Translations under genes and position numbers: made by a program
Shown: piece by piece, positions 287 through 57,932 of the stretch
Numbering within the stretch: the stretch's first letter is position 1
Layout of the letters: every line of letters begins with the position of its first letter
Origin: a virus
Taxonomy: Duplodnaviria; Caudoviricetes
Reading direction: 5' to 3' (one strand)
DNA length: 60,016 nt
IMG/VR virus record: IMGVR_UViG_3300045767_000001
Span: 1 to 60,016 of that record
The notes under the pieces: generated by a model
The model's input: only the letters and a program-made list of their open reading frames with translations
Databases searched by the model: none
What the model was told of the DNA's origin: nothing

Positions 287-321
287 GGAGGGGGGCGGGC
301 TCGTACCCCGCTTCCCCTCCA
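287..321 (+). ncRNA. tRNA-like minihelix (acceptor-like stem plus T-arm-like hairpin)
   Basis: GGAGGGG pairs with CCCCTCC and stacks on GCGGG-CTCGTAC-CCCGC (5-bp stem, 7-nt T-loop-like loop); ends CTCCA. Confidence 0.35.
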
Positions 322-325
322 ACTC

Positions 326-397
326 GGCGCGGTAGCTCAATGCAGAGCACCGGACTTTCAATCCGGGAGATATTCTACTCCCTCTCGGCCACGCAGC
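326..397 (+). pseudogene. Degenerate tRNA (anticodon TTC, Glu; Lys-like body) with decayed T-arm
   Basis: GGCGCGG-TA-GCTC-AATGCA-GAGC D-arm and CCGGA-CTTTCAA-TCCGG anticodon arm are intact. There is no GTTCGA T-loop and acceptor pairing is only partial. Confidence 0.6.
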
Positions 398-819
398 TAC
401 TCGGGGAGTCCTCCGACCGGCAGCTCGGCTAGTTCCGCGGGCGTGACCTCAAGGATCTCGAACGTCGCGTCCTGCATGTCTTCGTGGCCGCCACCCGGCG
501 AAAGCGCCTTTACAGCGCCCTCGGCTTCATCGCGTGTCGTGAAGCCCGCACCGTCGCTGGCGCCGAAGTACTGCACCGTGTTCGGTTTGCCTTCATAGGT
601 GCCGGTCTCCTTGACGACGAAGCTGTTGGCGCCCGACACGTAGGTCTCCAGCGGGAGCACCATCGCCGTGATCCCCGCGTGCGCCACGATCTCCTCGGCG
701 AGCTTGGTGGCTTCCTCCCGGTCGAGCGGGGTGTCCGAGAACGCCCCTTCCGCCGGCCCGCTGTAGATGTGGGACGCCGGCGTTGCGCCCTGCTGGTAGG
801 TGTAGACAGCGTAGCCCAT
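397..819 (-). CDS. Hypothetical acidic protein
   Basis: ATG at 819 preceded by AGGAG; phage-like codon usage; 140 aa. Confidence 0.7.
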   Translation of the reverse strand: MGYAVYTYQQGATPASHIYSGPAEGAFSDTPLDREEATKLAEEIVAHAGITAMVLPLETYVSGANSFVVKETGTYEGKPNTVQYFGASDGAGFTTRDEAEGAVKALSPGGGHEDMQDATFEILEVTPAELAELPVGGLPE

Positions 820-842
820 ACTCCTGTCCTTTCGTCGGCCGG

Positions 843-1268
843 TTAGGTGCAGTCGGGCGCCGTTTCCCACGCCTCCGGGTCCACGCGCCACAGCGCACGG
901 AAGGCCAGCGTCTCTTCTTTCAGGCTGCCTTCCCATGGGATCTTGCGTTCCCTTACGCCCGCCATTCGGGCAGCCTCGTTGTAGGTAGCTGGCAAGAACT
1001 GATACCAGCCGTAATCGTTCCCGTTCGACGCCCAGCGATCGTCGCCGGACTCGTGCCAGACGATGCAGCGTTCAAGCGTCCCGAGCGAGAAGCGCCTCCG
1101 GTGTCTGCGGCGGCCCGTGTCCCCGCTTGTGGGCGTCCGTGTCCCACAGAATCCCTTGTAGCAGAGCGGGATTCCGGGATTGCGAGGCGGCTGCTGTCCG
1201 TCGGCGTGTCCCAGGGTGTGTCCCGGGGCCGGGACATTTACGGGCGCGATCAGCAGCCCGATTGTCAA
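843..1268 (-). CDS. Secreted transglycosylase-like (Rpf/lysozyme-fold) protein
   Basis: CIVWHESG...NG..YGWYQF..TY motif; hydrophobic N-terminus; start uncertain. Confidence 0.6.
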   Translation of the reverse strand: MTIGLLIAPVNVPAPGHTLGHADGQQPPRNPGIPLCYKGFCGTRTPTSGDTGRRRHRRRFSLGTLERCIVWHESGDDRWASNGNDYGWYQFLPATYNEAARMAGVRERKIPWEGSLKEETLAFRALWRVDPEAWETAPDCT

Positions 1269-1376
1269 CGTGAGTGCGAGTATCCATCGAACCTCCCGAC
1301 TCGTTCAGGCTCGCCCGCTGGGCGGCCAGGACTGCGCCCACCATCGACGCCTTCCGAGCATGTCGCTCGGGCGAGA

Positions 1377-1382
1377 TAGAAT
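1377..1382 (+). promoter_or_regulatory. -10 element for the tRNA-nucleotidyltransferase unit
   Basis: TAGAAT 7 nt upstream of the tRNA 5' end. Confidence 0.5.
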
Positions 1383-1389
1383 CCGGCAC

Positions 1390-1462
1390 AGCGGAGTGGA
1401 GCAGTTGGTAGCTCGTCGGGCCCATAACCCGAAGGTCGCTGGTTCGAGTCCAGCCTCCGCCA
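1390..1462 (+). tRNA. Initiator tRNA-fMet(CAT), CCA not encoded
   Basis: Full cloverleaf; A1:C72 mismatch; three G-C pairs closing the anticodon loop (GGG/CCC); GGTTCGAGTCC T-arm; loop CCCATAA. Confidence 0.92.
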
Positions 1463-1463
1463 T

Positions 1464-2249
1464 ATGGCAATCCCGAAGTACATCGTCGAACAGAACCCCG
1501 GGATCGGGGAGTGGTGTGTCCTGCACGGCTGGCGCGGGTCCGTTGCCCACGGCATGTACGAGCCGCCCGAGAACCCCGACAGCATCGATGACAAGGACAC
1601 GATGGCAATCTGCGTGCCCCAGCTCGACCACTACTACGGGCTGAGCGAGTTCGGCACCCACGGCACCCGGGAGATCAAGCAGGGCGAGTGGGACATTGTC
1701 GTCTACGAGGCACGCAAGGCCGTCCGGATGCTGAGCCAGGGCAACCCGAACATCCTTAGCCTGCTGTGGCTCCCTGAGAACGGGTACATCCAGCGCACCC
1801 CGGCCGGTGACCTTCTCGTTGAGAACCGGGACGCGTTCCTCGGCCGCCATGTCTACCAGTCCTTCGTCGGCTACGCCAAGGGCCAGTTCCACAAAATGAC
1901 CCATGGCGCGTATCGGGGCTACATGGGCGAGAAGCGCAAGGAAATCGTCGCCCGTTACGGCTACGACACCAAGAACGCCGCCCACCTAATCCGGCTGCTG
2001 CGGGTCGGTATCGAGCTCCTGCACGACGGCTATCTACGGGTAGACCGCGGCGGCCTCGACGCGACCGAGCTGCTGGACATCAAGCACGGCAAGTGGACAC
2101 TCGGCCAAGTACAGGATGAGGCCATGGTGCTATTCCGCCGCGCCGAAGAAGCCTACGACTGTTCCAGTCTCCCGGCCGCCTCGGACCGCGAGCGCATCAA
2201 CGACCTGTGTGTTGCTGTCGTTTCCGATGCGCTGAGCGCTTCTGTCTGA
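1464..2249 (+). CDS. Pol-beta superfamily nucleotidyltransferase (RlaP/YcgL/T4 NrdC.11-like, Nuc-transf)
   Basis: GSVAHG...DDKD motif, D-x-V-x-YE-x-x-K, GNPNIL and GYDTKNAAHLIRLL are family-typical. Confidence 0.85.
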   Translation: MAIPKYIVEQNPGIGEWCVLHGWRGSVAHGMYEPPENPDSIDDKDTMAICVPQLDHYYGLSEFGTHGTREIKQGEWDIVVYEARKAVRMLSQGNPNILSLLWLPENGYIQRTPAGDLLVENRDAFLGRHVYQSFVGYAKGQFHKMTHGAYRGYMGEKRKEIVARYGYDTKNAAHLIRLLRVGIELLHDGYLRVDRGGLDATELLDIKHGKWTLGQVQDEAMVLFRRAEEAYDCSSLPAASDRERINDLCVAVVSDALSASV

Positions 2250-2304: not shown

Positions 2305-2628
2305 CTACTCTGCGGCTTCGGTTCCAGCCTTCAGCGCGTTTGTGACCGCTGAGACTTTTTCGGCCAGCGAGTCCACTTCGGCTTCCGAGATCGACCCGGC
2401 CTTCAGTTCCGTGACCTCCGTGGCGAGAGCGGCAAGCTCCGCGACGGCGGCTGTCTCTGCGCCTTCGAGTGCTGCGACATCGGCGGCGAGTGCTTCGATT
2501 GCTGCGGACATGGTTTCGATCCTTTCGATCAGGGTTTCGAGTTCGCTGCCACAGAAGACGGCACCGAGGTGCCCGCGCCGCGCAGGGCTTCGGTCTAGCT
2601 GCCGGTTGGTTGGTTTACGACGGAACAT
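2305..2628 (-). CDS. Small coiled-coil protein
   Basis: ATG overlaps the upstream stop; heptad Ala/Glu/Leu pattern. Confidence 0.55.
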   Translation of the reverse strand: MFRRKPTNRQLDRSPARRGHLGAVFCGSELETLIERIETMSAAIEALAADVAALEGAETAAVAELAALATEVTELKAGSISEAEVDSLAEKVSAVTNALKAGTEAAE

Positions 2629-3674
2629 CAGGTCACCGGCACCGTGAACGTGTCCACAGCCGGGGTCACATTGCCCTGCGCGTCCACGCCGATGTACTCG
2701 CCGGCGATCGACGAGGTCGTGACAGTGAGCCGGAGATACCCCCACTGGGTGGCGTCGAACGCGCGCAGCACAATCCCCGGCGCGACCTGCATCCCGGGCG
2801 TCGCGTCCGAGGCCATCGCGTGAAGGTTCCGGTATCCCGATGCGCCGCAGACGATGTGCGGGAGGATCTTGCCGTCAAACGCGGTCATCGTCCGCTCGAA
2901 GTACTGGAAATCGTGCACATGGCCTGAGAGCACGAGATCCGGGCACCGGCCCGCGGCGGTGTACGCTTCGTCGAGCATCGTGCCCATCTGCTGCGAGCCG
3001 CCGTGCCGCGCGTCGCAGCTCAGCGGCGGATGGTGCAGGGCGACGATGAGCGCGACGCCATGAGGCGCGGCCTTCAGCTCGCCGACGAGCCACTCACGCT
3101 GGTCGGGCTCCACGACGCCGCCGGAGGGCACGTTTGTCGCCAGGCCGATCACCGTCAGCAGCGGATCGGTCAGCGTCCAGAAGGCGTTGGGCTGGGTCAT
3201 TGTGTCCCTGTGGAACTCGGCCATCTCGGGCAGCAGTTCGGGCTTCGTCGCGCCGAGGTAGCGCATGAAGTTCGCGTAGCTGAACGCGTCGTGGTTGCCG
3301 CTGATCCCCATCAGCGCGCGGTTGTATTCGGCGTACGCCTCGAAGACCTGGGTGACCCACGCCTGCTCTTCTGATTCGTAGTAGGCCCAGTCACCGACGT
3401 GGTAGGCGAACTCGACGCCGTTGGAGAGGTCGGCGATCATCGCCTTGATCACGTCGATCTGCGGGTTCGGATCAGTGATCCCTCCTGAATCTCCAAGCAC
3501 GTGGAGTATGCGGACCGATGGGTTGAGATCCTCGACGACGTCGGCGAGCGCCAGGCGGTACGGCGCGGGCCCGGTGGGTGCAGGCAGTGCGTGAAAGCCT
3601 TCGTCGGTGGCGAGCGTCTGGTCCTTCTGGACCTGCTCGCGCGCTGTGGACGGGGCGATGCCAAGGCGTCTCAT
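2628..3674 (-). CDS. Calcineurin-like metallophosphoesterase (purple acid phosphatase-like)
   Basis: GDSG, GDWAY, GNHD, HH and GHVH metal-binding motifs. Confidence 0.88.
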   Translation of the reverse strand: MRRLGIAPSTAREQVQKDQTLATDEGFHALPAPTGPAPYRLALADVVEDLNPSVRILHVLGDSGGITDPNPQIDVIKAMIADLSNGVEFAYHVGDWAYYESEEQAWVTQVFEAYAEYNRALMGISGNHDAFSYANFMRYLGATKPELLPEMAEFHRDTMTQPNAFWTLTDPLLTVIGLATNVPSGGVVEPDQREWLVGELKAAPHGVALIVALHHPPLSCDARHGGSQQMGTMLDEAYTAAGRCPDLVLSGHVHDFQYFERTMTAFDGKILPHIVCGASGYRNLHAMASDATPGMQVAPGIVLRAFDATQWGYLRLTVTTSSIAGEYIGVDAQGNVTPAVDTFTVPVT

Positions 3675-3676
3675 CG

Positions 3677-12209: not shown

Positions 12210-12210
12210 G

Positions 12211-26393: not shown

Positions 26394-26455
26394 GGCTTAC
26401 CCGCGCAGGAGCATGCCCCGTGCGTCCCAGACACTGCCGCAGCACGCGAGCCTGG

Positions 26456-26971: not shown

Positions 26972-26974
26972 CGC

Positions 26975-27295: not shown

Positions 27296-27309
27296 TAGCG
27301 CTCCTTCGG

Positions 27310-31028: not shown

Positions 31029-31068
31029 GCTTCACTCCTTCTCTGCGCCATGCGCAGGCGTCTGTTTG

Positions 31069-32204: not shown

Positions 32205-32229
32205 GGCTTCCTTTCGTCAGGGGTTGAGA

Positions 32230-32315
32230 GCGCGCGGCCCGGAGTCGAACCGGGAGCGGCGCCGGAGCGCCGCGGCCCGATGCCGCGCTGTTCGCAACGG
32301 CCCGAAGGCCGCGCA
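32230..32315 (-). ncRNA. tRNA-like cloverleaf element downstream of the capsid gene
   Basis: Acceptor TGCGCGG/CCGCGCG; D-like TTCG/CGAA; CGCGG-CATCGGG-CCGCG arm; variable arm; canonical T-arm CCCGG-TTCGACT-CCGGG. Confidence 0.6.
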
Positions 32316-32342
32316 TCTACGCCGCCGAGGCGGCTGTAGGGG

Positions 32343-34085
32343 TCAGGAGTTGAACGTCCGGTGTTCTGAGGACATCCCGGTGCCGGTGATGACTGACGTG
32401 GCGGTCGGGTAGCGCGCCGCCGTGAACGCGCCATAGTTGTATGCCTGCAGGAGCACGGAGAGCTGCAGCCCGTAGGTCTGCGGCAGCGCCCGGGTTATCA
32501 CCGGCGACTCGTACAGGAGGTTCTCCTGGCCGCGGGTGATGATCCCGACATCCTGGTTTTTGTTGGAGCCGAGGTTCTTGACGATGTTCGCGTCCTCGAA
32601 CGTGTGCAGCAGCCCGAGCTGACGGCCCACGGCGCCTTCGGCGACCGCGTCGTCCGGGGCGACCTGCAGCGCGTTGAACGGCCCGTTGTAGTCGGGTACG
32701 ACGAGTGGCCGTTCGGTGGTGTCGAACGTCTGGGCGATCCACTCCCAGAGTTCCGGGCGGATGAACTGGTGTGTCGCGGGACGGAAGATCGTTTCGGCGA
32801 CTTCCTTCTTCGCGACACCCATCCGTCCGTAGTAGCCCTTCACCGTCGGCGAGGACTGGGTCCAGGTGATCGTGTTGATCCCGGCGGTGTTGAGCAGCCC
32901 GGTCGGTTCGCCGTTTTCTCCGGAGCCGTTGATGACGAACAGGTCCATGCACTGGGCCTGCGCTGCGGCGAGGTCGCCCCAGATCACCGTGTCGAAGTGG
33001 ATCGGGGAGCGTTCCATGAGCTGCAGCGAGATGATCTGGCCGCCCGCCGCGGTGAACACCGGGATCGAGATGTACTTCGTTTCGATGTCGGTGAGCGAGA
33101 TGTTCGTGTTCTGAATCCCTTGGGCGGTGTAGGTCGTGCCCTTCGCCACCTTCGGGATGTACATCTGCATCGTGCCGTCCGGCAGGTCTTCGTGGCCCAT
33201 GCAGTTCGCCACGACCCGCCCGGCGCGCAGAAACGCGACCCACTTGGCGATCATGTAGTCGGGCGGCACGAACTCGCCACCGGCGGTGAGCGTGGTGGAG
33301 AGCGCGCGGTAGGACATCTGACGGTCGGCGAGCGAGCCGCGGTTCTGCTCGCGCGTGTTGCGCACCTCGATCATCTGTTTCAGGAAGTAGCCGTCATGGG
33401 AACGCTGTGCCTTCTCGCGCTCCTCATGGGCCATCCGGCCGATGCGCTCCTCGACCTCGAGCGCCCGGTGGTGGTTCTGCTGGCCGTTGCGCTGCATCCG
33501 CTCGACCGCCTCGAAGTGCGAGGAGCCCATCGCGGCGACCGGGAACGCGAGCGTGCAGATGTCCTTGAGGAACGAGACGCCGTTGCCCCGCTCGTACACG
33601 GGCACGTCGCGGATCGATTCGACGTTGCCGCCGACGGAGCCCGCAGGGAGATCCCCGAGCCCGAGTTCGCGACGGGTCTGTGCGAGCGCCTGGGTCGCCC
33701 GCTCGCTGCGCTGCTCCTTCTTCAGCTTGCGCAGCTCGTCCTCGCGCAGCTCGATCTGCTCGCCGGCGCTCGCGATCCGCGCCTTCAGTTCGCCGCGCTT
33801 CTCGGCCTCCTCGGGCGTGAACGCCCGCGCCGCGCCCTGGCCATCGACCGCGCCGTCGTCGATCTTCTCGAGCTCGTCCTCGAAGCCTTTGCGGTCCTGC
33901 GCGAGGGTGGCGAGCTTCTTGCGTAGCGCCTTCTTCGGCTTCTCGGCGTCGCCGGATCCCGCCTGGCCGGAGCCTCGCTGGCTGCCGCCCACGATCTCGG
34001 CGAGCGCCTTGCGGACCTCCAGGGCGACCGCCGCGCCGCTGTCGTCCGGCTTGTCGTACAGAAACAGCCATCCCCGTCTGCGCAT
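32343..34085 (-). CDS. Major capsid protein, HK97 fold, with N-terminal scaffold domain
   Basis: RALST..GGEFVPP, ISLQLMERS and NGSG.NGEPTGLLN motifs; N-terminal coiled coil. Confidence 0.9.
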   Translation of the reverse strand: MRRRGWLFLYDKPDDSGAAVALEVRKALAEIVGGSQRGSGQAGSGDAEKPKKALRKKLATLAQDRKGFEDELEKIDDGAVDGQGAARAFTPEEAEKRGELKARIASAGEQIELREDELRKLKKEQRSERATQALAQTRRELGLGDLPAGSVGGNVESIRDVPVYERGNGVSFLKDICTLAFPVAAMGSSHFEAVERMQRNGQQNHHRALEVEERIGRMAHEEREKAQRSHDGYFLKQMIEVRNTREQNRGSLADRQMSYRALSTTLTAGGEFVPPDYMIAKWVAFLRAGRVVANCMGHEDLPDGTMQMYIPKVAKGTTYTAQGIQNTNISLTDIETKYISIPVFTAAGGQIISLQLMERSPIHFDTVIWGDLAAAQAQCMDLFVINGSGENGEPTGLLNTAGINTITWTQSSPTVKGYYGRMGVAKKEVAETIFRPATHQFIRPELWEWIAQTFDTTERPLVVPDYNGPFNALQVAPDDAVAEGAVGRQLGLLHTFEDANIVKNLGSNKNQDVGIITRGQENLLYESPVITRALPQTYGLQLSVLLQAYNYGAFTAARYPTATSVITGTGMSSEHRTFNS

Positions 34086-34191
34086 CGTGTGCTCCTTTGA
34101 GTCGGATTTGGGTTGTGCGCGAGTGGTCCGCGCAGCTCCGGCTCGCTCGATGCGAGTGGTGGCGTGCGACTGCCGGCTTGCGGTGATTCAG

Positions 34192-34548
34192 TCAGCTCTT
34201 GATCCGCGCGTTCCAGAGCAACAGGCACATGGCCTTCCCCTGGGCGGCGCGACAGTTTGCCTTCGAGTTGTCCAGCAGCACTTCTACGTCGTTGTCTTCG
34301 ATTGCCTTCAGCTTGTTCTGCGGGTGCGGCTGAGGGCAGACGATCAGGGAGCGGTACAGGTCGCTGGAGATCCCGAGCCCCGTCAGGTATTCGCGCTTCG
34401 CGGCGACGTCGGCCTTCGTGACTGCGGTCGCCTCGACTCCGGTGATGACGAAGACGCCGAAGCCCGCGGCCGTGAACGCGCTCATCATCGACTGAAACTC
34501 GCGCGGGAAGCTGTCGACCGTCCCATCGATATCGATGGCTATATTGAT
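34192..34548 (-). CDS. HAD-superfamily phosphatase (probable ATC start)
   Basis: In-frame extension upstream of ATG 34488 gives INIAIDIDGT (motif I), then VITG, K and LLDN. Confidence 0.65.
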   Translation of the reverse strand: MNIAIDIDGTVDSFPREFQSMMSAFTAAGFGVFVITGVEATAVTKADVAAKREYLTGLGISSDLYRSLIVCPQPHPQNKLKAIEDNDVEVLLDNSKANCRAAQGKAMCLLLWNARIKS

Positions 34549-36170
34549 CGCCGCCCCCGTAGCTGGTTGCGTTCTCGTTCGCGAGCGCGGGCGAGCGCGT
34601 AGGGGTTCTGCGAGCGGGACCCGGCGCCGTCCTTCGGACTGATCGGGTTTTCCTGGACACCCGGGGGCACCTGGCTGTTCTGCCCGTCATCGCTCGCGCC
34701 TGCGTTGGAGTTGGCGAGCACGTTCGAGACTTTCTCGACCGCTTCGGCATGGCTGTTCGCCATTTTCGAGTGCGCTTTGTCCGCGGCGCCGAGCGCGTCG
34801 AGCGCCTGTTTCAAGAGCCCTTCGTTCTTCGAGGAAAGCGTCTTGCCGGCGCGCAGCTCCAGCATCGTCTGCGCGACGAGGAACGTCCGTGCGCGTCCGT
34901 GCGGGCCGCTTGTTCGGCTGACGACTTCGTCGGCGTGCGCGAGCGCACGGAGCGCCTTCTCGATCAGGTCGTCGCTGTCGTCGGGGAGTGCCTGGCGATC
35001 GACGATCACCGGCAGCGCGGAGCGGACCGACAGCTCGCTGTCGGAGAGCCACAAGCTGCGGCCCTCGCGCCCGAGCGCGGAGCGCATCGCGTCGACGAGG
35101 CCGCCCGACGCTGTTGGGTTCACGGGGTAGGTCACGATCGAGGTGTCGTAGAGCATCGCCTCGATGACGTCGCGTTTGTCGTAGGTGTTGTTCCAGGCTT
35201 CCTTGATCGCCCGGAATGAGACGCTCATGTCTTTCAGCACGCCGCGTTCGCATTGCACGCAGATCGAGTTGGAGAACTGGTCGCGGCGGTCGAACTCGGC
35301 GGCGTTGCGCAGCCCCTTCGCGACCTCCGAGAGCTCCGATGTCCCGCTCGCCGTCGAGGCCAGCGGCGGGTGCGAGTCGTCGTGGTTGTAGAGCATCGGC
35401 ACGTTTCCGCGCTCTGTGATCGTCTTGGCCCACGCGCCGGGCTGCATCCGCTCGTCATATTCGCCAAGCCAGTCGGAGACTGCGTAGGCGACGCCCGTGG
35501 GCGACGGGAAGCCGACGAAGTGGGCGATGTGCCCGTCTGCCTCGGCACCCATCCGCACCTGGATCTCCGCGGTGTGCGCCGGCGGCTGCTCAACCAGCGA
35601 CATGAACCCGGCGCGCTTCGCGGTCGCCCAGTTCACGGACCGTTCGGGGGTGTCTTCGTGGCCGTCCTTGGACTGCGCGACGATCGCCTTGTCGAGCTCC
35701 TTCTCGGCTCCTTCGATGTGCTTCATCACCGCCGTGTCGTCCGGGTCTGTCTTGTAGTCGGGGTCGGCGAGCTGCTTGGCCTTGACGCCCGCGAGCAGCA
35801 TCTTCGATTCCCGCAGCCCGTGGGCGATCCCGTAGTCCTCGGGGGTCGGTGCGTCGCGGGTCTCGCCCTCGGGCTCCCCCGACTTGGCGGCGGTCAACGA
35901 GCCGTCCGCCTTCCAGGTCTCGGGGATCTTGTCCGCTTTGCCCATCGCCTTCGCGCGGGCCGCAACGTACTTGCGGATCGCGTCATGCTCAGCACCGCCG
36001 CGGCCGACTGCTTGGACCGCTTTGTCGAGGTCGTCGTCATCGTCGATCGAGTAGGACGTGCCTCCGGGGAACGTGTGCCCCTTGGCCTGTAGCGCCTTGA
36101 GCTGGTCGGCGCTGTACTTCGCGCGCACCTGCTCCAGGTAGGCAGCGTGCCTCTGCTCATGCTCGGTCAC
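34539..36170 (-). CDS. HK97-type prohead protease with N- and C-terminal extensions
   Basis: PGAWAKTI, MLYNHD, MSVSF and SIVTYP motifs. Confidence 0.88.
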   Translation of the reverse strand: MTEHEQRHAAYLEQVRAKYSADQLKALQAKGHTFPGGTSYSIDDDDDLDKAVQAVGRGGAEHDAIRKYVAARAKAMGKADKIPETWKADGSLTAAKSGEPEGETRDAPTPEDYGIAHGLRESKMLLAGVKAKQLADPDYKTDPDDTAVMKHIEGAEKELDKAIVAQSKDGHEDTPERSVNWATAKRAGFMSLVEQPPAHTAEIQVRMGAEADGHIAHFVGFPSPTGVAYAVSDWLGEYDERMQPGAWAKTITERGNVPMLYNHDDSHPPLASTASGTSELSEVAKGLRNAAEFDRRDQFSNSICVQCERGVLKDMSVSFRAIKEAWNNTYDKRDVIEAMLYDTSIVTYPVNPTASGGLVDAMRSALGREGRSLWLSDSELSVRSALPVIVDRQALPDDSDDLIEKALRALAHADEVVSRTSGPHGRARTFLVAQTMLELRAGKTLSSKNEGLLKQALDALGAADKAHSKMANSHAEAVEKVSNVLANSNAGASDDGQNSQVPPGVQENPISPKDGAGSRSQNPYALARARERERNQLRGRRSI

Positions 36171-36256
36171 TGCTGCCCTCCTTCGGGTTCTGTGGCGGGT
36201 TCGCCGCCCTTGGCGCTGTTCGGGGATCTTGGGCGTCCAGATCGCTCGCGCGCCGC

Positions 36257-36712
36257 TTACTGGGCGGCGGCGAAGCGGGCGAGATAGGCGTCGGCGCGCT
36301 CCAGGAATCCTGGCTGCTCATATCGCCCGAGCCATGAGTTACACCGTGCGCACAACAAGCCGCGCACTCCGCCATCCCGATGGCAGTGATCGACGTAGAG
36401 CCTGCTGTTGCCGTTGAGTTTGCCGCAGATCGCGCACACGCCGCCCTGTGCCGCCAGCATCGCCTCATACTGCTCAACCGTGATGCCATAGCGTTCGCGA
36501 TAGCTCTTGCTGCGCGCCTTGCGTCTCGCTATGGGCGTCCGCGACGTGTGAAGCTTGCAGCATGCCGTTGAGCAAAAGGCATGATTGCGCCTCACCCGCG
36601 CGAAGTCTTCTCCGCACACAGGGCACGAGGCAACAGTCACTGGCGCTGGCGGGATCGGGACACCGTGCTCGCGGCGCGCCTTCGCAGCCCGGTGAGCATG
36701 CTTATCGCACAT
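36257..36712 (-). CDS. Endonuclease VII-family homing endonuclease
   Basis: YGIT..Y..ML..Q.G.CAICG...VDHCH...VRGLLC..CN..LG. Confidence 0.85.
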   Translation of the reverse strand: MCDKHAHRAAKARREHGVPIPPAPVTVASCPVCGEDFARVRRNHAFCSTACCKLHTSRTPIARRKARSKSYRERYGITVEQYEAMLAAQGGVCAICGKLNGNSRLYVDHCHRDGGVRGLLCARCNSWLGRYEQPGFLERADAYLARFAAAQ

Positions 36713-36793
36713 TCCATACCGCCGCGAGGGTTTCTCGCACCCGTCGATGTAGCAGGTAGGGGGAATGCCCTTGAATGGTGCGATCCGGCTATC

Positions 36794-38125
36794 TTATGAG
36801 GTCGGCCCCCCATCTGCGTTCGGCTTGCCTGTCGGGGTACCTGGAGCATTGATTGAGCCCGGCAACGCGCTCTCCGCTCCGCCTTCTGGGCTCGCGAGGA
36901 AGTCCGCGTGCGCCGAGGCGACCGGAGCGAAGATGCTGTCCGCGCCCTCCTCGTCGCTCTTGGGTAGCCCGAGAAGCTCGAGGCCCGCGTTCGGAGAGAG
37001 CACCGATGCCTGGCGGAGCATCGAGACGAACTGGCCGCGCATCTGGTCGTTCGTCTCGAACAGTTCCTTGACGCGGCGCACAACGTAGTAGCCAGCCGGC
37101 AGAAGGTGGGTATCCGCGCGGTCAAGGCGCCCGGTGTAGCCTTTTAGTGCGAAGACCGCGAAGCCCATGATGATTTCCTGAAGGCCCTTGCCCCACACGC
37201 CACCCTGGTCTGGTGTGTCACCGACGAGGAACCCCGGCACGCCGTAGAAGCCGGTGATCTCGCCGCGGCTGAACGACCGGGACTGTAGGAGCTGCGCGGT
37301 CTCCGGGTTGATGCTGATCTGCTGCCATTTGGCTGCGGCGTCCAGCACGATCGGCGTGTGGGCCTGGGCGAGGCCGCCGTGCTTGGTGAACAGCTCGTCC
37401 TGCACCCGTTTGGAGTCCTCGGGCCGCAGCGGCTTTTCGATCGAGAGGATCCCCGAGGGGTGCATCGCCTGGGGGTAGAAGCGGTCGGAGTACTCAGCGG
37501 CGGCCAGGGCGTTGCCGAAGCCGTGGACGCCGATCTCGATCGGGTTCAGGCCGACGAGGCCGCCGCCGAGCGCGATCCACGGCGTGTGGATGATGTCGGA
37601 CGCCGGGATTTCCCGGCCTACCGCACCGACTTTGTAGACCTTGCGCCCTTCGCTTTCTTCGACCTTCATGATCGCCGGGTTCACCACCTCGACGACGTCG
37701 GGGTTCCCTAGGCCCTTTCCGCCCGCGCGATCGACGACATGGGTAATCATGTTGCCGTTCAAGCCGAGTGACGCGACCCGGCGGAAGTCGCCGTCCTCAC
37801 GGTCCATGTCCGCGTACGGATCGACGATGACGTCCGGGGGATCGACCTCCTTGTCTTCCGGGGAGCGGCGGTTGCCGACCATCCGGTAGACGTGGGGCTC
37901 AAGGCCCGCAGACGTGTCTCCCAGGATGCGGATGCAGGACGAGACGACCATCAGCGAGAGCACCGTGCGCTCGCTGACCGTGACGCCGGCCGTCGAACTG
38001 TTGTAGGCGCTTGGTGGCGGTATGGCCGCCGGGTCGCCGATCCAGCCGCCCCAGCCGCCTTGACCGATCGGCCAGCCGCGCTGCTGCTGCATCTGGCGCT
38101 GCGCGCGGCGCGCAAGGACGGTCAC
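36794..38125 (-). CDS. Portal protein (HK97 family)
   Basis: V.SC.RIL, L.GN, GLNPI, PSGIL and FYGVP motifs; GTG start 38125. Confidence 0.9.
   Translation of the reverse strand: MTVLARRAQRQMQQQRGWPIGQGGWGGWIGDPAAIPPPSAYNSSTAGVTVSERTVLSLMVVSSCIRILGDTSAGLEPHVYRMVGNRRSPEDKEVDPPDVIVDPYADMDREDGDFRRVASLGLNGNMITHVVDRAGGKGLGNPDVVEVVNPAIMKVEESEGRKVYKVGAVGREIPASDIIHTPWIALGGGLVGLNPIEIGVHGFGNALAAAEYSDRFYPQAMHPSGILSIEKPLRPEDSKRVQDELFTKHGGLAQAHTPIVLDAAAKWQQISINPETAQLLQSRSFSRGEITGFYGVPGFLVGDTPDQGGVWGKGLQEIIMGFAVFALKGYTGRLDRADTHLLPAGYYVVRRVKELFETNDQMRGQFVSMLRQASVLSPNAGLELLGLPKSDEEGADSIFAPVASAHADFLASPEGGAESALPGSINAPGTPTGKPNADGGPTS
38073..38125 (-). repeat. 53-bp direct repeat, copy 1 (portal 5' end)
   Basis: Identical to 38677..38729. 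Confidence 0.95.
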
Positions 38126-38613
38126 GGCAGCGGTGCACCGGCCGCCGCAGTCCAGCCGACCGGCTCTACGTCGTCGATGTCCTCCGTGCGGTCGTTGACG
38201 CCGAACAGCAGCTCGCGCGCGGTTCGGTGCCGCCGTCGCTCGGCGGCGACCCGCTTGGCTTTCGCGCGCGAGTCGTCGTCCCACTCGCCATAGATGACGC
38301 CCTCGGGGTCATCGCGGCAGTCCCGGACACCGGATATGAAGCAGTCGCCGGGGTTGTACTCGCGCGCTCCGTCGAGCGCGTTGAGGATCTTCTCGCGCAG
38401 ATCCCGCTCGACAGGCTCGCCGGCGAGGAGTGCTCGGAGCGCCGCGACGCCGGACGCCGGAATGCCGATCCAAGCGTAGGGGAACTCGTACTCGTCGTGG
38501 TCCGTGAAGGTCGTCATCTTCAGCGCTAGCCCGTGCGGGTGGAAGAACTGACGGTTGGCCTCTTGGAGGAAGCCGATCTCTTTCAGCTCACGCGGCTCGA
38601 TGTACTTCGCCAT
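38122..38613 (-). CDS. Hypothetical phage protein inserted between the portal-start repeats
   Basis: GFLQEANRQFFHPHGLAL...DCRDDPEG; GGAGG RBS. Confidence 0.7.
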   Translation of the reverse strand: MAKYIEPRELKEIGFLQEANRQFFHPHGLALKMTTFTDHDEYEFPYAWIGIPASGVAALRALLAGEPVERDLREKILNALDGAREYNPGDCFISGVRDCRDDPEGVIYGEWDDDSRAKAKRVAAERRRHRTARELLFGVNDRTEDIDDVEPVGWTAAAGAPLP

Positions 38614-38676
38614 CTGTGCCTCCCTCTGCATCGGTCGCCCATGTAGCCGCCCCGGCCTCCCTGGCTGATGCAGATG

Positions 38677-38729
38677 CAGCCGCGCTGCTGCTGCATCTGG
38701 CGCTGCGCGCGGCGCGCAAGGACGGTCAC
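38677..38729 (-). repeat. 53-bp direct repeat, copy 2 (starts a 48-aa portal-N mini-ORF ending 38583)
   Basis: Identical to 38073..38125. Confidence 0.95.
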
Positions 38730-38751
38730 TTCTTGCGCTTCTTCTATCGGC

Positions 38752-39069
38752 TCATCGCCCCTCCTCGCCGACCATCGGGCTGGCGCGCTCGGGCCTCACC
38801 GCCCCGCGCGCCGCTCGCCGCCGGACGAGCCGCATCTGGATCGCCTGCCGGCGTTCCTCACGCCAGGTCGGCAGGTCGGGCTTGCGCGGCAACGGCACCC
38901 GCCAGACATGCCCGTCGTAGATCAGCTCGGCGGCGAGGATCAGCAGCACCGCGGCGAGGATCAACGCCCACTTGAAGCCTACGAGCTGATCGACTCCGTA
39001 CACTCCGCAGGCGCCGCCGAGCAGCTCCAGCAGGTTGCCGACGTTGAGCACCACACGGGTCCGTTGCAT
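38752..39069 (-). CDS. Small membrane protein between terminase and portal
   Basis: Two TM helices and a basic tail. Confidence 0.65.
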   Translation of the reverse strand: MQRTRVVLNVGNLLELLGGACGVYGVDQLVGFKWALILAAVLLILAAELIYDGHVWRVPLPRKPDLPTWREERRQAIQMRLVRRRAARGAVRPERASPMVGEEGR

Positions 39070-39073
39070 GCGG

Positions 39074-40747
39074 TCACGCCTCCGGTTTGTGGGTCGGGCA
39101 GCTCCCCTGCGAACACGCGAAACAGGCGGTGTACTGCTCCTGCTCAATCACCTGCGGCACCTGTTGTTCGATCGACTCCCCTGGGGCTGGCTGGCTGTCG
39201 GACGCGAACAGCACGGTCGCGTACTCGCTCTCAGCGTTCTGTGCGGCCCAGAGCGCGAGGGACATCGAGACGAGCGGCGAGATGTCAGGACTCGTACTGG
39301 ACTTGCGCGACCACTTCCACCGCTCACCCATGATCTGCGGACGGGCACCGGCCAGAGCATCGTCGAGGTCGGGCTGGGGTGCCGGGTATCGGAAGTTGCC
39401 CTCGAGTACGGTCGCGAGGAAGTCGGCGCACGCGTCTCCGTACTCGCGGGTGGACACTTCGATGGGGTCGATCCCAGCCTCGCGGAGATCACCGATCAGG
39501 TTCGACGCGGGCCCGCGAGGGTCGACGACGAACCGGGCATCGGGATCATCTCCCCGAACTTCGACGCAACGGCCCACGATCCACGCCTTCGTGCGTGCGT
39601 GCTGGACCACCGATCCCTGCCACAGCCCGTCGGGTCGTTCTCCGGCAACGCTGAGCGACCCCCACGTCTGATCGGTGTTCGTGTCCACCGCATACGCGCG
39701 GCAGGCGACAATCCCAACCTCGCGGTCATGCTCGGCTAGCCCCTGCCAGAGCTCGAGCGGGACGACCCTCCCGGCGCCGTCGGTGATGTCGGGCCAGTCG
39801 CCGATCCCCATGCGCTCGGTCAGGAACTCCGCGTAGGGCATCGCGCCACGGCGCTCCGTCCGCACATGGTCGACCGCGATCCGCAAGCCGAGCCCCGGGT
39901 TCGCCTGACCCCACGCAACGGGGTCGTCGATCATCTCCGGACGCTCGGCGAACTCCTCCTCGTCAACCGACCACTCCGCGTAGAACAGCGCGGGCTCAGT
40001 GCCGCTGATCCCAAGCGCCCGGATGCGGGCAAGCTGCTCCCCGTAGGGCATCGTCTGCTGGTTGACCGCCGACCCCGTGTACCAGACCTGCGGGCCCGGC
40101 AGGAACATATGCCCCGTGCGGGCGGATACGACCGGCATCACGTCACCGACGATGGGGTCGGGGAGGTTCATCGCCTCGTCCCACGCAAGCAGATCACCCG
40201 TGAACCCGCGCCCCTGGCCGCCACTCTTGGTCCGCGCCGCGAAGATGATGCGGGAGCCGTCCTCGAACTCGATGCTCTCTTCGCCGTGCGAGTTGTGGAA
40301 GCCCGCCGGTTCTCCCAAACGCGTGGGGCCCTTTACGGCGGCGAGCATCTCCGGGCACGCCTTGATCCGCGCCTTCAGGCGACGAAAATGCTCCAGCGAT
40401 GTTTTGAACTGGTGCGCCGAATGAACAACTACGCGAGGGCCGATGTGTGGCGCGATCAAGAACACCTCAGCCAGCTCGCGGGCCTCGAGGATCGCGTTCT
40501 TGCCGTTCTGGCGTCCCACGACAAGCCCGACCTGGAACGCGGCCCACTTCCCATCGCTGCGTTCCCCGAGCGAATGCCGGAGCACCCACTGCTGCCACGG
40601 GTCGAGGTCAAGCCCCGCGATCGCCGCAAGGTCGACTGCCTCATCGCCGACCGACGACTCGTACGCCGGGACCGTGCTGATTCTAGGAGTCTGCGCCCCT
40701 GGCCACGGCCAGCTTGAGCTTCTTCGCACGGCGGTCGCTGAGGTCAT
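39074..40747 (-). CDS. terL: Terminase large subunit
   Basis: LDPWQ, GRQNGKN Walker A, GRG..GD...DEA Walker B, ANPGLG and DISPL motifs. Confidence 0.93.
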   Translation of the reverse strand: MTSATAVRRSSSWPWPGAQTPRISTVPAYESSVGDEAVDLAAIAGLDLDPWQQWVLRHSLGERSDGKWAAFQVGLVVGRQNGKNAILEARELAEVFLIAPHIGPRVVVHSAHQFKTSLEHFRRLKARIKACPEMLAAVKGPTRLGEPAGFHNSHGEESIEFEDGSRIIFAARTKSGGQGRGFTGDLLAWDEAMNLPDPIVGDVMPVVSARTGHMFLPGPQVWYTGSAVNQQTMPYGEQLARIRALGISGTEPALFYAEWSVDEEEFAERPEMIDDPVAWGQANPGLGLRIAVDHVRTERRGAMPYAEFLTERMGIGDWPDITDGAGRVVPLELWQGLAEHDREVGIVACRAYAVDTNTDQTWGSLSVAGERPDGLWQGSVVQHARTKAWIVGRCVEVRGDDPDARFVVDPRGPASNLIGDLREAGIDPIEVSTREYGDACADFLATVLEGNFRYPAPQPDLDDALAGARPQIMGERWKWSRKSSTSPDISPLVSMSLALWAAQNAESEYATVLFASDSQPAPGESIEQQVPQVIEQEQYTACFACSQGSCPTHKPEA

Positions 40748-41030
40748 CCAGCCTGGTCCTCTCTCGCTTCGCCGGCGCCATTTCCCGCAGTCGCGCCCGG
40801 GCATCCAGAAGCGCTTTCGCGCACTCGCTCGGCGAACCGCCGCCCTCATCGAGTCGGAGCGCCATCGCTAGAGCGGTTGCGGCCTCGGTCGACTGCGCGA
40901 CATCGGCCGGCATCCTCGCCAGATCGCGCTCGACCGCCGCGACCGCGCTCATATCTACGTCGGCCGTCGGCTCGCTCGCCGGTTTCGGTTTCGGCTTGCA
41001 TTTCGGCGCTCTGGCCTTCGGGGCGGCCAT
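40683..41030 (-). CDS. terS: Terminase small subunit
   Basis: A.AMA.RLD...L...L...LDDL..RR pattern typical of actinophage TerS; directly upstream of TerL. Confidence 0.7.
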   Translation of the reverse strand: MAAPKARAPKCKPKPKPASEPTADVDMSAVAAVERDLARMPADVAQSTEAATALAMALRLDEGGGSPSECAKALLDARARLREMAPAKRERTRLDDLSDRRAKKLKLAVARGADS

Positions 41031-41032
41031 GC

Positions 41033-41788
41033 TCAACCTCGGATCTTGCGTCGAGCCCGTGCCCGCCGATGGTTCGGCCTGCCCGCCGTCGCACAGTTGC
41101 ATTTCTCATGCTCGGGGCCTGCGTACCGCGAACGGTCCTGGTCCACATGCCCCAGGTGCCACGGTTCTCCCGACAGGATCAGCCGGCCACAACCGACGCG
41201 AGCGCAGACCACTCCGCCGGCCGCGACCTTCCGCGCCCACTTCTCGCGCAGCTTCTGGTGATTCGTCCCATAGCCGCGAGCCGTCGACGTGCCCTGCGAC
41301 CTCGAGCGCCCACGAACCTTCCGCTGCTGCGCCGCGACGATCGACTTACACGTCGGGCAGTACCAGTGGCGCGGCGTGATCGTCGGCGCCGAGTTACATC
41401 GTCGACATACGCGAGGCTGCCCCTGACCGTGCTTGCGCCGCGACGCCTCAAGCTTCGCATCGCGGTTCACCGCGTAGTACTGGCGACTGCGCTTCGCGTC
41501 GCACTCGAGGCACCGGCTCGCGTAGCCAGATGCCTTGCTCGCGTCCCGCACAAACGCGGCCGCTGGCTTGACCACGCGACAGATCGGACAGCGCCTCGAA
41601 GGGGCGTTTTTGGTGCCGGAGAGAGAAAAATTGGTGCTGCGCGGGTCATCGTCGTTGATATTGGGAGTACGACCTACCCCCCCTCCCCTTCTCATCGTGT
41701 GTGTGCTGGTCATAGGCACTCCTTGTTCGGGGAGTGATGGGACGGTTGGATGGTTGGATGGTGGAGACCCCATGCACCCTGCTACCAT
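41033..41788 (-). CDS. HNH endonuclease associated with packaging (start uncertain)
   Basis: ARGYG..H.KLR, CAR..CG, WHLGH and GPEH..CN motifs; N-terminal zinc fingers. Confidence 0.72.
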   Translation of the reverse strand: MVAGCMGSPPSNHPTVPSLPEQGVPMTSTHTMRRGGGVGRTPNINDDDPRSTNFSLSGTKNAPSRRCPICRVVKPAAAFVRDASKASGYASRCLECDAKRSRQYYAVNRDAKLEASRRKHGQGQPRVCRRCNSAPTITPRHWYCPTCKSIVAAQQRKVRGRSRSQGTSTARGYGTNHQKLREKWARKVAAGGVVCARVGCGRLILSGEPWHLGHVDQDRSRYAGPEHEKCNCATAGRPNHRRARARRKIRG

Positions 41789-41797
41789 CCGTTACCA

Positions 41798-42181
41798 ATG
41801 GCTATCAAGCAGATCAACCTACGGCTCGACGAGTCACTGCTGACCGCGATCGATGACATGCGAGGTCTTGTGCCCCGCAATGCCTGGATCAAAGACGCCT
41901 TGGAGCAACGCATCGGCGGCGACATGACTGTGTCTTACGAGTACACACAGGCCGCTGGACTGCCGCGCCTTCTCAGCGGAGTGTCTAGACCTGTGACCGT
42001 CGCTGACCTGAAGGGCGATTTCCTCGCCGGTCTGTCGGTCCACGCAGCAAGCCACTCTTCAGCCCACTCACACTCGGTCGAAGCCATCGGATCGGCGTCA
42101 AGCAGTCCAGTCACGCCGGGTCGTGTCTCGCCGAAGCTGCGTTCCGGCATCAAACCGCGACCGAAGGGAACGACGAAATGA
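41798..42181 (+). CDS. Ribbon-helix-helix DNA-binding protein with mosaic C-terminal tail
   Basis: KQINLRLDESLL..ID..RG...RNAWIKDAL; extended -10 TGcTACCAT upstream. Confidence 0.7.
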   Translation: MAIKQINLRLDESLLTAIDDMRGLVPRNAWIKDALEQRIGGDMTVSYEYTQAAGLPRLLSGVSRPVTVADLKGDFLAGLSVHAASHSSAHSHSVEAIGSASSSPVTPGRVSPKLRSGIKPRPKGTTK

Positions 42182-55730: not shown

Positions 55731-56068
55731 CGCCGTCCCTCGCCCAGAGCAGCGTCAAGCGTGTCCTCGCCCACGAGCCCGTGCACGACATGCCCGACCA
55801 ACGTGTCCGGGACCGTCCGGCCGCGCGTGAAATCCTCCGCGAGGTTCGCGTCCAGCTCCCGGTCAACGATCTCCACCCAGTCCCGTAGCTGAGCCTCGGT
55901 CGCAGCCGTCAACACAGCCTCCGCAACAGGCCGGTAGTAGCCGTCCGGGGCGATCTGCGCGCGCCGTGCCTCGCCAGCAAGCACCGCTTGATCGAAACGC
56001 CTCCGATCCTCAGCGGGAATCTCGTCCTCTGGCGCTCGGTAGATGTTGCCTTTAGCGTCCATCGTCAT
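55727..56068 (-). CDS. Hypothetical protein
   Basis: AAGGA RBS. Confidence 0.55.
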   Translation of the reverse strand: MTMDAKGNIYRAPEDEIPAEDRRRFDQAVLAGEARRAQIAPDGYYRPVAEAVLTAATEAQLRDWVEIVDRELDANLAEDFTRGRTVPDTLVGHVVHGLVGEDTLDAALGEGRR

Positions 56069-56080
56069 GTCCTTTCCTCC

Positions 56081-56102
56081 GGGCCATCAAAGTGGATACC
56101 CC
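56081..56102. promoter_or_regulatory. 22-bp dyad motif, copy 3 (1 mismatch)
   Basis: GGGCCATCAAAGTGGATACCCC. Confidence 0.6.
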
Positions 56103-56482
56103 GTCTTCGAGGAGGCGAAGATCAAGCGGACGGTGACCGGGTCCACTGCCTCGATCGTCGGCGTCTCCTGCCCAATGATCACCGCGTCGCAGACTTGGGC
56201 GCGGTCCGTGAATAGGTTGTAGAAGATGTCCCCACCGAAGTGCCGGTGAAGCTCGAAGTGCCCACCGGACTCCACCTTTTGCCACCGGCCGCCGAGAGCC
56301 TTCGCGCGCACCACCAGTTCCTCACGGCTGACGAGGTACTCAAGCGCGTAGAACGATCCAGTCGGCAGTTCCGCGTCGGGATGCCCCTCCAGGAAGTCGG
56401 CGAACGCCCGGAGTCCCGCGATCTTCGCGGCACGCTCCTCCTCGGCCTTCTGCTCCACTTCGTCATCTATGATGCTGCTCAT
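56087..56482 (-). CDS. Hypothetical protein
   Basis: IAGLRAFADFLE.HP actinophage-like motif. Confidence 0.6.
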   Translation of the reverse strand: MSSIIDDEVEQKAEEERAAKIAGLRAFADFLEGHPDAELPTGSFYALEYLVSREELVVRAKALGGRWQKVESGGHFELHRHFGGDIFYNLFTDRAQVCDAVIIGQETPTIEAVDPVTVRLIFASSKTGYPL

Positions 56483-56488
56483 CGGAAC

Positions 56489-57153
56489 TCACTTTCCGGT
56501 CATGCCCGTGGCTGGTTGCACAGCGTGCGGGCGCTTTACTGGCTGAACTGAAACGGCTACCGCCGAGGTCAACGGGCGCGAGTGCTCCGCCGCCCGACGC
56601 TCAGCGTCACGTGCGTCGAGGTCGGCTGCGTGTCTGCGGCGCAGCTTCAACGAGACGAGTTCCTGGCCGAGAGTCATCGCGGCAGCCGCCCCTGACCCTC
56701 GATGTTGAAGCGCTGGACGGCAACCACGAATGGTTCAAGCGCGCCGCCAGCGTTACGCGCGGCGGCCACCATGTCCGGTGCGATACCTGAAGCGCGTAGA
56801 CCGCGGTGCCCATGGACGATCAGCCAGAGCACCTGGCCCGAGTCTCCATAAGTCTGTGGCAGGAAACGCACAAGAAAGCCCGTGTCCTGATCGTCTGGGT
56901 CTAGCGCCATCCTTCAGCCCTCCCGTCCCGCAAGGGCACCCACTTCGGCAGCGAATGGTTCGCCGTACACCGCCGCCATGTGCAGGTCGAAGTCAGCCTT
57001 CCGGCCTTCCCATCCGCACCAGCAGCCGAAGCACATGACCGTCTGCCCCTCGTACCATGGGATAGCGTGGCTGAATGCGTGCCTTACGCCCCTCGAATCC
57101 ATCACCGGATCGCATAGGTTCTTGTCGCGAATCGAGGCCAATGCGTCGCTCAC
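56489..57153 (-). CDS. Three small hypothetical genes (56489..56677, 56674..56910, 56914..57153)
   Basis: Closely coupled ORFs with RBSs. Confidence 0.5.
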
Positions 57154-57154
57154 G

Positions 57155-57385
57155 GCTCAGCCCTCCTGTCCCGCGCGGCGTGTCACGACGCAGGGCCTCC
57201 GTAGACGCTGCCGTCCGGACTCCAACGCGACAGCGTTGCCGTCACACACTGGAGCCGGGTAACGATCAGTGACCAGGTGCTCAGGAGGGTCGCTTAGCGG
57301 TGCTCCTGATTGATGGTGGAGACTTGATGACTGTCCGCGTTGGTAGGCGGACAAGCGACCCTCCTCAACACCCGGGCCAGGTGTT
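57155..57385 (-). ncRNA. Highly structured intergenic RNA
   Basis: 20-bp stem 57276..57295/57353..57372 (2 mismatches) enclosing two hairpins, plus a further long hairpin. Confidence 0.5.
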
Positions 57386-57674
57386 ACTCGAACGTTTCCA
57401 CCACCTCGGTCTTGATCTTCCGGTTGTGCCAGCTCACCGCACTCGACGGCACCACCAGGAAACGGCCCTCCTTCGGCTCGCCGCCGTTCGCCGCCACGGC
57501 CTTCTTGATCGCATCCTTGCGAGACGCCGCCGTGATCCATTCCGTCACGCAGACGAGGCTCTTTTCGGCGTTCTCCACGAACACCGAAAACGACGCCGGC
57601 GCCTTCGTTCTCGCCGGCTTCGGGTCCGCTGCCGCCTTCAGCCGGGACTGAGCATCGTTCAACGCTGCCTCCAT
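57384..57674 (-). CDS. Hypothetical protein
   Basis: GAAGGA RBS; 96 aa. Confidence 0.55.
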   Translation of the reverse strand: MEAALNDAQSRLKAAADPKPARTKAPASFSVFVENAEKSLVCVTEWITAASRKDAIKKAVAANGGEPKEGRFLVVPSSAVSWHNRKIKTEVVETFE

Positions 57675-57932
57675 CACTGTCCTTCCTGTCGCTGGTTATG
57701 GTCTGCACGGACGGCAGGGCTGGGGGGAGCCCGGACACCGCACCGGTAGACGCTCGGGTTATGGGCCCTGCGTCGCCGTCAGCCAAGGTGATGAAGCTCG
57801 GCGAGGCTGCATTACCGGCTGATACAGCGGCGTCGCGCGCCGCCCGTGCAGAATCAAGATCCAGAACCGACTCGTCCCAGCCGTCAAGCTGAGAATCGGT
57901 CAGCGTGACCGGACGGTCGTCGTCGAAGGGGA

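Follow-up and report, generated by a model that had tools for sequence, protein, structure and literature searches.

Can a phage combine a tRNA gene, tRNA-like decoys and RNA end-processing enzymes into a single system for its own defense? This question is raised by IMG/VR virus record IMGVR_UViG_3300045767_000001 (Duplodnaviria; Caudoviricetes), a DNA of 60,016 nucleotides, which was analyzed over its whole length and is called the window here. A preliminary description had proposed that eight parts located between positions 287 and 57775, namely one initiator tRNA, four tRNA mimics and three putative RNA end-processing enzymes, form a tRNA decoy-and-repair system. Our analysis has led to another answer: the eight parts are two small real modules together with unrelated parts, not one system. 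One module is a cassette, in which an initiator-type tRNA gene is followed directly by a gene for an RlaP-family nucleotidyltransferase, and the other is a tRNA-like element located just behind the major capsid gene. To the reading of the cassette and the capsid-boundary element as two small modules, with the remainder unrelated, we give a probability of about 0.55.

The sole tRNA found by ARAGORN in the 60016 bases is a tRNA-Met(CAT) at 1390..1462 on the plus strand, which scores 62.5 bits with the Rfam tRNA model. In initiator tRNAs, positions 1 and 72 do not pair, A11 pairs with U24, and three G:C pairs adjoin the anticodon loop. The tRNA-fMet of the preliminary description was confirmed by the presence of all these hallmarks in the cloverleaf, where A1 stands opposite C72, the D stem has the A11:U24 pair, and positions 29-31 form three consecutive G:C pairs with 39-41 in the anticodon stem. 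A C occupies position 33, so the phage tRNA lacks the U33 that is near-universal in tRNAs.

The nearest relatives of the phage are prophages in three metagenome-assembled genomes (MAGs) of Solirubrobacterales, with a capsid identity of 51-58%, and the host therefore probably belongs to this order. Each of the three MAGs has a single initiator tRNA, which is 89-90% identical to the phage tRNA and has C1 opposite U72 as well as U33. The differences between the phage and host-clade tRNAs preserve pairing in the acceptor stem and T stem by compensatory changes, and CCA is encoded neither in the phage tRNA nor in the host-clade initiator tRNAs. As judged from these features, the phage tRNA-Met is a host-derived tRNA of initiator type. 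Phage tRNAs with altered anticodon loops evade nucleases, and tRNA-fMet is generally avoided by phages where VapC targets tRNA-fMet, according to the accessible part of a recent report (eLife 2023, PMC10264068). Compared with the nuclease-evading tRNAs in that part of the report, the present tRNA is alike in departing from the host tRNA in the anticodon loop (U33 to C33), and unlike in that this phage does encode tRNA-fMet.

The gene that follows at 1464..2249 on the plus strand encodes a Pol-beta nucleotidyltransferase of 261 amino acids. Its assignment as RlaP-like was upheld by PF10127 (E = 1.3e-19; 71.4 bits against a cut-off of 23) and phrog_388 (E = 4.7e-40), and 2201 homologues were found. 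The catalytic motif of Pol-beta enzymes is GS followed by DxD. The N-terminus and the GS...DDKD motif are kept in 27 homologues, with G25, S26, D42, D43 and D45 invariant, and because of this conservation of the N-terminus the start codon can be fixed at the ATG at 1464. Since the tRNA ends at 1462, there is a spacer of only one base after the discriminator, and the fixed start leaves no space for a ribosome-binding site. A -10-like hexamer, TAGAAT (1377..1382, plus strand), is located 7 nt upstream of tRNA position 1 and may be part of a promoter from which transcription starts at the first base of the tRNA. A similar hexamer is found 9 nt upstream of the ATG of a 75%-identical nucleotidyltransferase, without a tRNA, in the prophage of one of the MAGs (G003).

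RlaP enzymes, including the T4 family member NrdC.11, add 1-2 nucleotides onto RNA 3'-OH ends and prefer damaged tRNA, as reported in the available portion of a recent preprint (doi 10.64898/2025.12.29.696909). The phage enzyme resembles those described there in Pfam membership, in the Pol-beta GS...DxD motif and in its occurrence in a phage. It differs in that this phage has no RNA ligase, whereas the family owes its name to an association with a ligase, and a head-to-tail join to a single initiator-type tRNA with a 1-nt spacer is not described in that portion of the study. In the tRNA-plus-RlaP cassette, phage tRNA-maintenance genes of a known kind are arranged in a new way.

Neighborhoods of the enzyme gene were compared in the best 80 of 126 candidate IMG/VR stretches encoding a relative of the nucleotidyltransferase. 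A tRNA was found within 3 kb of the enzyme in 10 of these 80 loci, and 33 of the 34 tRNAs near the enzyme are on its strand. Five loci, four of which are distinct, have a tRNA ending at most 100 nt upstream of the enzyme start: a tRNA-Met(CAT) ends 49 nt before the start in L233 and 30 nt before it in L287 (the same as L291), and a tRNA-Tyr (L261) and a tRNA-Glu (L298) occupy this place in the other two. About 0.3 such cases are expected by chance from 34 tRNAs in 513 kb, by our own estimate, in which tRNAs forming clusters are not independent. Both tRNA-Met(CAT) loci belong to AT-rich phages whose enzymes are only 44-58% identical to the present one. An RNA ligase family occurs somewhere in three of the five records with a tRNA-adjacent enzyme, and none was found in the complete 182-kb record with tRNA-Met, like in this phage. 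In this 182-kb AT-rich phage (L287, 944..6735), the neighbors of the tRNA-Met-RlaP pair include a GroEL-like chaperonin, a 5'-3' exonuclease, a dCMP deaminase, a small P-loop kinase of AAA_33/KTI12 type and a primase.

The second module is located on the minus strand at 32230..32315, 27 nt past the stop codon of the gene for the HK97-type major capsid protein (32343..34085, minus strand; 580 amino acids), whose homologues carry PF05065. When both strands of the genome were scanned with strict T-arm settings, only two T arms were detected, one in the tRNA and one in this element. In the element, a closing helix of 7 pairs encloses an insert of 54 nt and a T arm, whose stem has 5 pairs and whose 7-nt loop fits the T-loop consensus; the T arm is stacked on the 3' strand. 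Its fold z-score is -2.5 on the minus (coding) strand versus -1.05 on the plus strand, and an Rfam search of the interval gave just a local tRNA-Sec match (E = 7.4). A cloverleaf had been proposed at this place; the T-arm scan bears out a tRNA-like element, which reads on the minus strand, but not a full cloverleaf.

Among the relatives, 133 distinct post-capsid windows were compared, and five of them (L006, L007, L176, L178 and L186) have a strict T arm at most 150 nt past the capsid stop. Elsewhere, 7 strict T arms were found in 4,098,146 strand-bases outside ARAGORN tRNAs, several of them within open reading frames or similar to tRNA fragments, and the T arm is thus strongly enriched just past the capsid stop. 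The capsids flanked by the element are only 33-58% identical, and the 17-nt T arm with its consensus loop is kept at one position. In the six elements that were compared, the closing helices have 5-7 pairs and differ in sequence, the inserts are 15-54 nt long, and one T-stem pair is flipped; A-CCA follows directly after two of them. The architecture of closing helix and T arm is the unconstrained minimum-energy fold in four of the six. MAFFT could not bring the 5' strands of the six elements into register, and the closing helices were assessed by pair tables and shuffles, not by a covariance model.

The T-arm 17-mer is found in two host genomes (G002 and G003) in the prophage only, so that the element does not copy a resident tRNA; it is also internal to both integrated prophages, not at their ends, and hence is no attachment site. 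An exact-pattern scan of IMG/VR for the T arm together with the 3' strand gave nine stretches, none of which adjoins a capsid relative. Of the nine, four are genuine tRNAs; ARAGORN recognizes no tRNA in the other five, three of which (L311, L313 and L315) resemble tRNA 3' fragments.

Since plain long hairpins follow the capsid gene in other relatives, the most economical reading is that the element acts at the 3' boundary of the capsid message. Known tRNA-like processing signals include the tRNA punctuation of polycistronic RNAs, MALAT1 mascRNA, phage P4 CI RNA and P1 C4 RNA. The element is similar to such RNase P/RNase Z signals in its acceptor-like helix on a T arm, its consensus T-loop, its location at a gene boundary on the coding strand and, in two cases, the A-CCA that comes after it. 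It is different in that inserts of 15-54 nt replace the D and anticodon arms. By analogy, tRNA-end enzymes may act on the element. A limited literature search gave no published case of a tRNA-like processing signal behind a phage capsid gene. The IMG/VR relatives L041-L057, which are without the T-arm element, have a hairpin of about 12 pairs located about 30-130 nt past the capsid stop; its stem sequence varies and its loop keeps a GGCGGGCAAC-like motif, making it a second conserved RNA element at that position.

Under the two-module reading, the tRNA-Met would be co-transcribed with the nucleotidyltransferase, with transcription starting at or next to the first base of the tRNA, and 3' processing of the CCA-less tRNA would free a nearly leaderless message for the enzyme. 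The phage would supply an extra initiator tRNA, and the enzyme would extend RNA 3'-OH ends, so that tRNAs including the phage's own remain usable during infection. The post-capsid element, as a mimic of the top half of a tRNA, would most likely work in cis: recognized by tRNA-end enzymes, it would mark a boundary at which the late message is processed or stabilized. The phage tRNA strategies known so far mostly involve elongator tRNAs. Should the cassette function in the proposed way, it would be a minimal phage means to safeguard translation initiation and would give the recently characterized RlaP enzymes a ligase-free role. If the post-capsid element is read by tRNA-end enzymes, tRNA mimicry by phages sets boundaries of late messages, and some of the numerous tRNA-like structures that have been reported from viral metagenomes without explanation would be accounted for.

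Each of the four supposed mimics is of a different nature: one is a plain hairpin, one a decayed tRNA gene, one the proposed late-operon cis element described above and one a 15-mer that is possibly due to chance. The GC-rich hairpin at 287..321, in the 3' region of a minus-strand gene (397..936), has a fold energy of -26.3 kcal/mol (z = -3.6), and 3 of 200 shuffles fold as well. It shows no T-loop in the strict T-arm scan and has no counterpart in relatives (the G003 prophage and the phage collection), so that what had been described as a T-arm minihelix is an ordinary hairpin. The T-armless pseudo-tRNA of the preliminary description is tRNA-derived. At 326..391 on the plus strand, a degenerate remnant with anticodon UUC scores 30.1 bits with the Rfam tRNA model, whose gathering score is 29 (E = 0.028 for the whole genome and all Rfam families). 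Its D arm and anticodon arm are intact, there are two mismatches in the acceptor stem, and the T arm has been lost. ARAGORN made no call at 326..391, and at a lowered threshold it gave meaningless calls on both tRNA-like stretches. No match to the remnant was found in the three host-like genomes, in the phage collection or, by an exact 35-mer search, in IMG/VR, and we read it as a probable decaying tRNA gene.

The copy of the fMet anticodon loop was verified as an exact 15-nt copy of tRNA positions 29-43 on the minus strand (57754..57768). This copy spans the anticodon stem-loop together with the C33 that is specific to the phage. The 255-nt stretch around it carries no clear coding signal, an additional stem of 5 pairs flanks the copy, and the folding of its surroundings is not unusual (z = -0.85). 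The 13-nt core of this copy occurs once per host-like genome, in the tRNA. A shared word of at least 15 nt with the tRNA was obtained in 6 of 300 first-order Markov genomes. The copy is suggestive but unexplained, and may be due to chance.

Both phosphatase-like proteins are present. The calcineurin-like metallophosphoesterase (2628..3674, minus strand; 348 amino acids), whose gene is convergent with that of the nucleotidyltransferase, matches PF00149 (E = 3.3e-9) and phrog_1649. Its nearest relatives of solved structure are, weakly, the Rv0805/Icc cyclic-nucleotide phosphodiesterases (E = 0.018). It is an unlinked accessory gene, and a role against cyclic-nucleotide immune signals is conceivable.

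The third enzyme is a capless HAD-fold protein of 118 amino acids encoded between the prohead protease and capsid genes (34192..34548, minus strand). Motif I of HAD proteins is DxDx(T/V) at the end of strand 1. The phage protein has DIDGT; D6, G9 and D12 are invariant and D8 is nearly invariant among 12 sequences. The HAD assignment stands on this DxDGT motif and on the fold, though no Pfam family was matched at E <= 0.01. The AlphaFold2 model has a predicted local distance difference test score (pLDDT) of 93.7, and Foldseek matched it to AphA, HisB-N and the phosphatase domain of T4 Pnkp (E = 3e-4 to 2e-3). The best template modeling score (TM-score), 0.70, was with Pnkp-type 3'-phosphatase domains (T4 Pnkp and Pnkp1), and nucleotide phosphatases (AphA and HisB-N) and universal stress proteins score similarly to Pnkp. 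Leads from the protein atlas are acid phosphatase, Pnkp-type and nucleotidase clusters, including NT5C and T5 dNMPase, and a sequence search of PDB gave nothing for either the nucleotidyltransferase or the HAD-like protein. The HAD gene is located between the protease and capsid genes in 30 of 205 loci, with 12 distinct proteins; it is a constant component of the head module in a wider clade. Its start position (34539..34548), which overlaps the stop codon of the protease gene, holds ATC, where relatives have ATG, GTG or ATT. Gene callers begin the gene at an ATG 20 codons later, so that the catalytic DxD motif is lost, and the protein atlas has the protein from residue 21 only.

An integrated counter-defense, in which a nuclease-resistant initiator tRNA, four decoys soaking up host tRNA nucleases and a ligase-independent repair by the nucleotidyltransferase and two phosphatases act together, would be in line with several observations. 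The phage tRNA departs from the host clade at position 33, where the 15-nt copy agrees with the phage; by TM-score, the HAD-fold model is closest to the T4 Pnkp and Pnkp1 3'-phosphatase domains; and, in the accessible portions of the sources, RlaP acts on damaged tRNA ends (doi 10.64898/2025.12.29.696909) and anticodon-loop changes let phage tRNAs evade nucleases (PMC10264068). The proposed parts, however, co-occur in no relative examined. The closest full relative, the G003 prophage, keeps only the nucleotidyltransferase (75% identity) and the post-capsid element, and has neither tRNA-Met, metallophosphoesterase, HAD gene nor a counterpart of 1..1463. A relative bearing the HAD gene is without the nucleotidyltransferase, tRNA and metallophosphoesterase, where only one of five metagenome loci could be searched as a whole record, and neither a metallophosphoesterase nor a HAD gene is found within 3 kb of the nucleotidyltransferase in any of the 80 viral loci. 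The co-occurrence of nucleotidyltransferase, phosphatases and mimics that the proposal entails is thus lacking in the relatives examined. The genes are dispersed across 34 kb and differ in strand and module, and phages without the other parts have the HAD gene as a constant element of their head module. Furthermore, the HAD fold fits AphA and HisB-N about equally, with NT5C and T5 dNMPase among the atlas leads, the metallophosphoesterase is closest to cyclic-nucleotide phosphodiesterases, 287..321 is not a T arm, the acceptor stem of the pseudo-tRNA is broken, and the phage has no ligase. Known RNA healing-and-sealing repair is performed by T4 Pnkp with Rnl1, bacterial Pnkp/Hen1 and RtcAB. The phage is like these in having a capless HAD fold (TM-score 0.70) and a nucleotidyltransferase of a repair-associated family, and unlike them in that no ligase or kinase domain was found, the genes are not in an operon and there is no co-occurrence. 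We consider the integrated system very unlikely. The link between a tRNA and an end-processing enzyme persists in the tRNA-nucleotidyltransferase unit, whereas the two phosphatases drop out as partners, and scattered phosphatases of this kind should not be annotated as RNA repair.

The two-module reading has its own difficulties, and the following points weigh against it. A simple sigma-70 promoter scan gave no call at 1377..1382, and the promoter and leaderless message are suggested only by the letters of the DNA. Repair of cleaved tRNA requires a ligase, according to the available portion of the RlaP study (doi 10.64898/2025.12.29.696909), and six frames of the genome gave 0 matches to PF09414 and 0 to PF01139, in agreement with the earlier remark that no RNA ligase gene was seen; RtcB was found in none of the three host-like MAGs. 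No tRNA is present within 3 kb of the enzyme in 70 of the 80 viral loci, nor within 4 kb of the enzyme gene in any of four annotated INPHARED phages, one of which has an RNA ligase two genes from the enzyme, and the pairing is therefore facultative but recurrent. The enzyme of the nearest relative (G003) has no tRNA in front, and the other two tRNA-Met genes are without the full set of three G:C pairs, and so may not be initiators. As for the post-capsid element, its tRNA-like fold in this phage is 4.8 kcal/mol above the minimum-energy fold. For each element, the upstream sequence was shuffled 2000 times, and between 105 and 1540 of the shuffles gave a closing helix as long as the one observed; with a combined p of 0.07, the helix by itself is not significant. 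Some of the six elements have a common ancestry. A contig from an RNA library spans 32145..32350 with no differences and indicates presence only, with DNA carry-over possible; short contigs of the structural region from one metatranscriptome run give neither transcription, ends nor strand.

Part of this evidence would also be expected if everything were incidental, that is, if an ordinary tRNA had landed between a promoter and the nucleotidyltransferase gene and the post-capsid element were an eroding tRNA remnant or a form of the capsid hairpin, with no tRNA-related function. The G003 enzyme gene behind a similar -10-like hexamer without tRNA, the majority of homologous enzymes without a nearby tRNA, the plain long hairpins past the capsid gene in other relatives and the acceptor-like closure, which is not statistically distinct, are all compatible with this explanation. 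It appears doubtful to us, since same-strand tRNAs at most 100 nt upstream occur in 4 distinct loci of 80 versus about 0.3 by chance (with the reservation on our estimate and on clusters given above), and a 17-nt T arm kept at one position across such divergent capsids is hard to explain without selection. Most improbable is that 326..391 and 32230..32315 are integration-site relics, displaced by integrase-mediated recombination, even though L311, L313 and L315 carry tRNA 3'-half fragments that share the T arm of the element, resemble its 3' strand and look like attachment sites. A six-frame search of the 60016-base genome gave no tyrosine integrase or serine recombinase domain, and the T arm of the element, which is internal to the G002 and G003 prophages, matches no other site there. 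In addition, 326..391 corresponds to the 5' two-thirds of a tRNA, whereas attachment sites keep the 3' end, and has no host-like match. The element shares with displaced fragments at attachment sites a partial tRNA sequence outside a tRNA gene, and differs from them in that both strands of its closing helix are present; with no integrase, an internal location and no matching host tRNA, the attachment-site reading was rejected. A more ambitious joint reading would make the cassette a ligase-free counter-defense unit, with a leaderless message, C33 as an escape change and an initiator tRNA kept under nuclease attack on tRNA-fMet or tRNA 3' tails. The post-capsid mimic would then be cut and CCA-tailed, punctuating or stabilizing the late polycistronic message in the manner of tRNA punctuation or mascRNA, and the copy at 57754 would serve as a protein-binding operator or decoy. 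We regard this combination as unlikely, and retain the two-module reading.

The record is a single contig of 60016 bases with a G+C content of 65%. Positions 1..127 are identical to 59890..60016, and from this exact 127-base direct repeat at the record ends the genome is circular or terminally redundant with a length of about 59.9 kb; the phage is a complete myovirus genome, and the span 287..57775 of the proposed system covers nearly the whole phage. Nearly all genes are on the minus strand. They encode a portal protein, a prohead protease, the HK97-type capsid protein, a tail sheath, baseplate J and an NlpC/P60 tail protein, as well as an endolysin-like protein, ERF and PD-(D/E)XK recombination proteins and a C5 methylase. 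Relatives were recovered by alignment-based searches. There is no close relative in the phage collection, as a megablast search of 1-20000 against phage records matched the tRNA only, and neither IMG/VR, the metagenomes nor the genome collection yielded one in single-protein searches with the capsid and nucleotidyltransferase. The capsid protein is about 30% identical to mycobacteriophage capsids, the tblastn matches being annotated major capsid proteins.

Several minor observations were also made. Compared with mycobacteriophage capsids, the capsid protein has about 90 additional N-terminal residues, and the prohead protease domain (S78) sits within a 543-amino-acid protein (34539..36170). 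A hairpin at 121..164 on the minus strand, with 7 G:C-rich pairs, a long loop and then seven T, is likely the terminator of the minus-strand genes; a simple terminator scan passed over it because of the loop length. In a related prophage, ARAGORN reported a 94-nt "tRNA-Trp" within a tail gene (G003:C1:422458-422551), which is probably a false call. Variants of the phage, with about 98% identity over the capsid region (26000..42000), are present in soil and permafrost metagenomes of other studies (runs X2 and X3) and include one contig of 5758 bases, and the phage lineage is therefore not limited to one sample.

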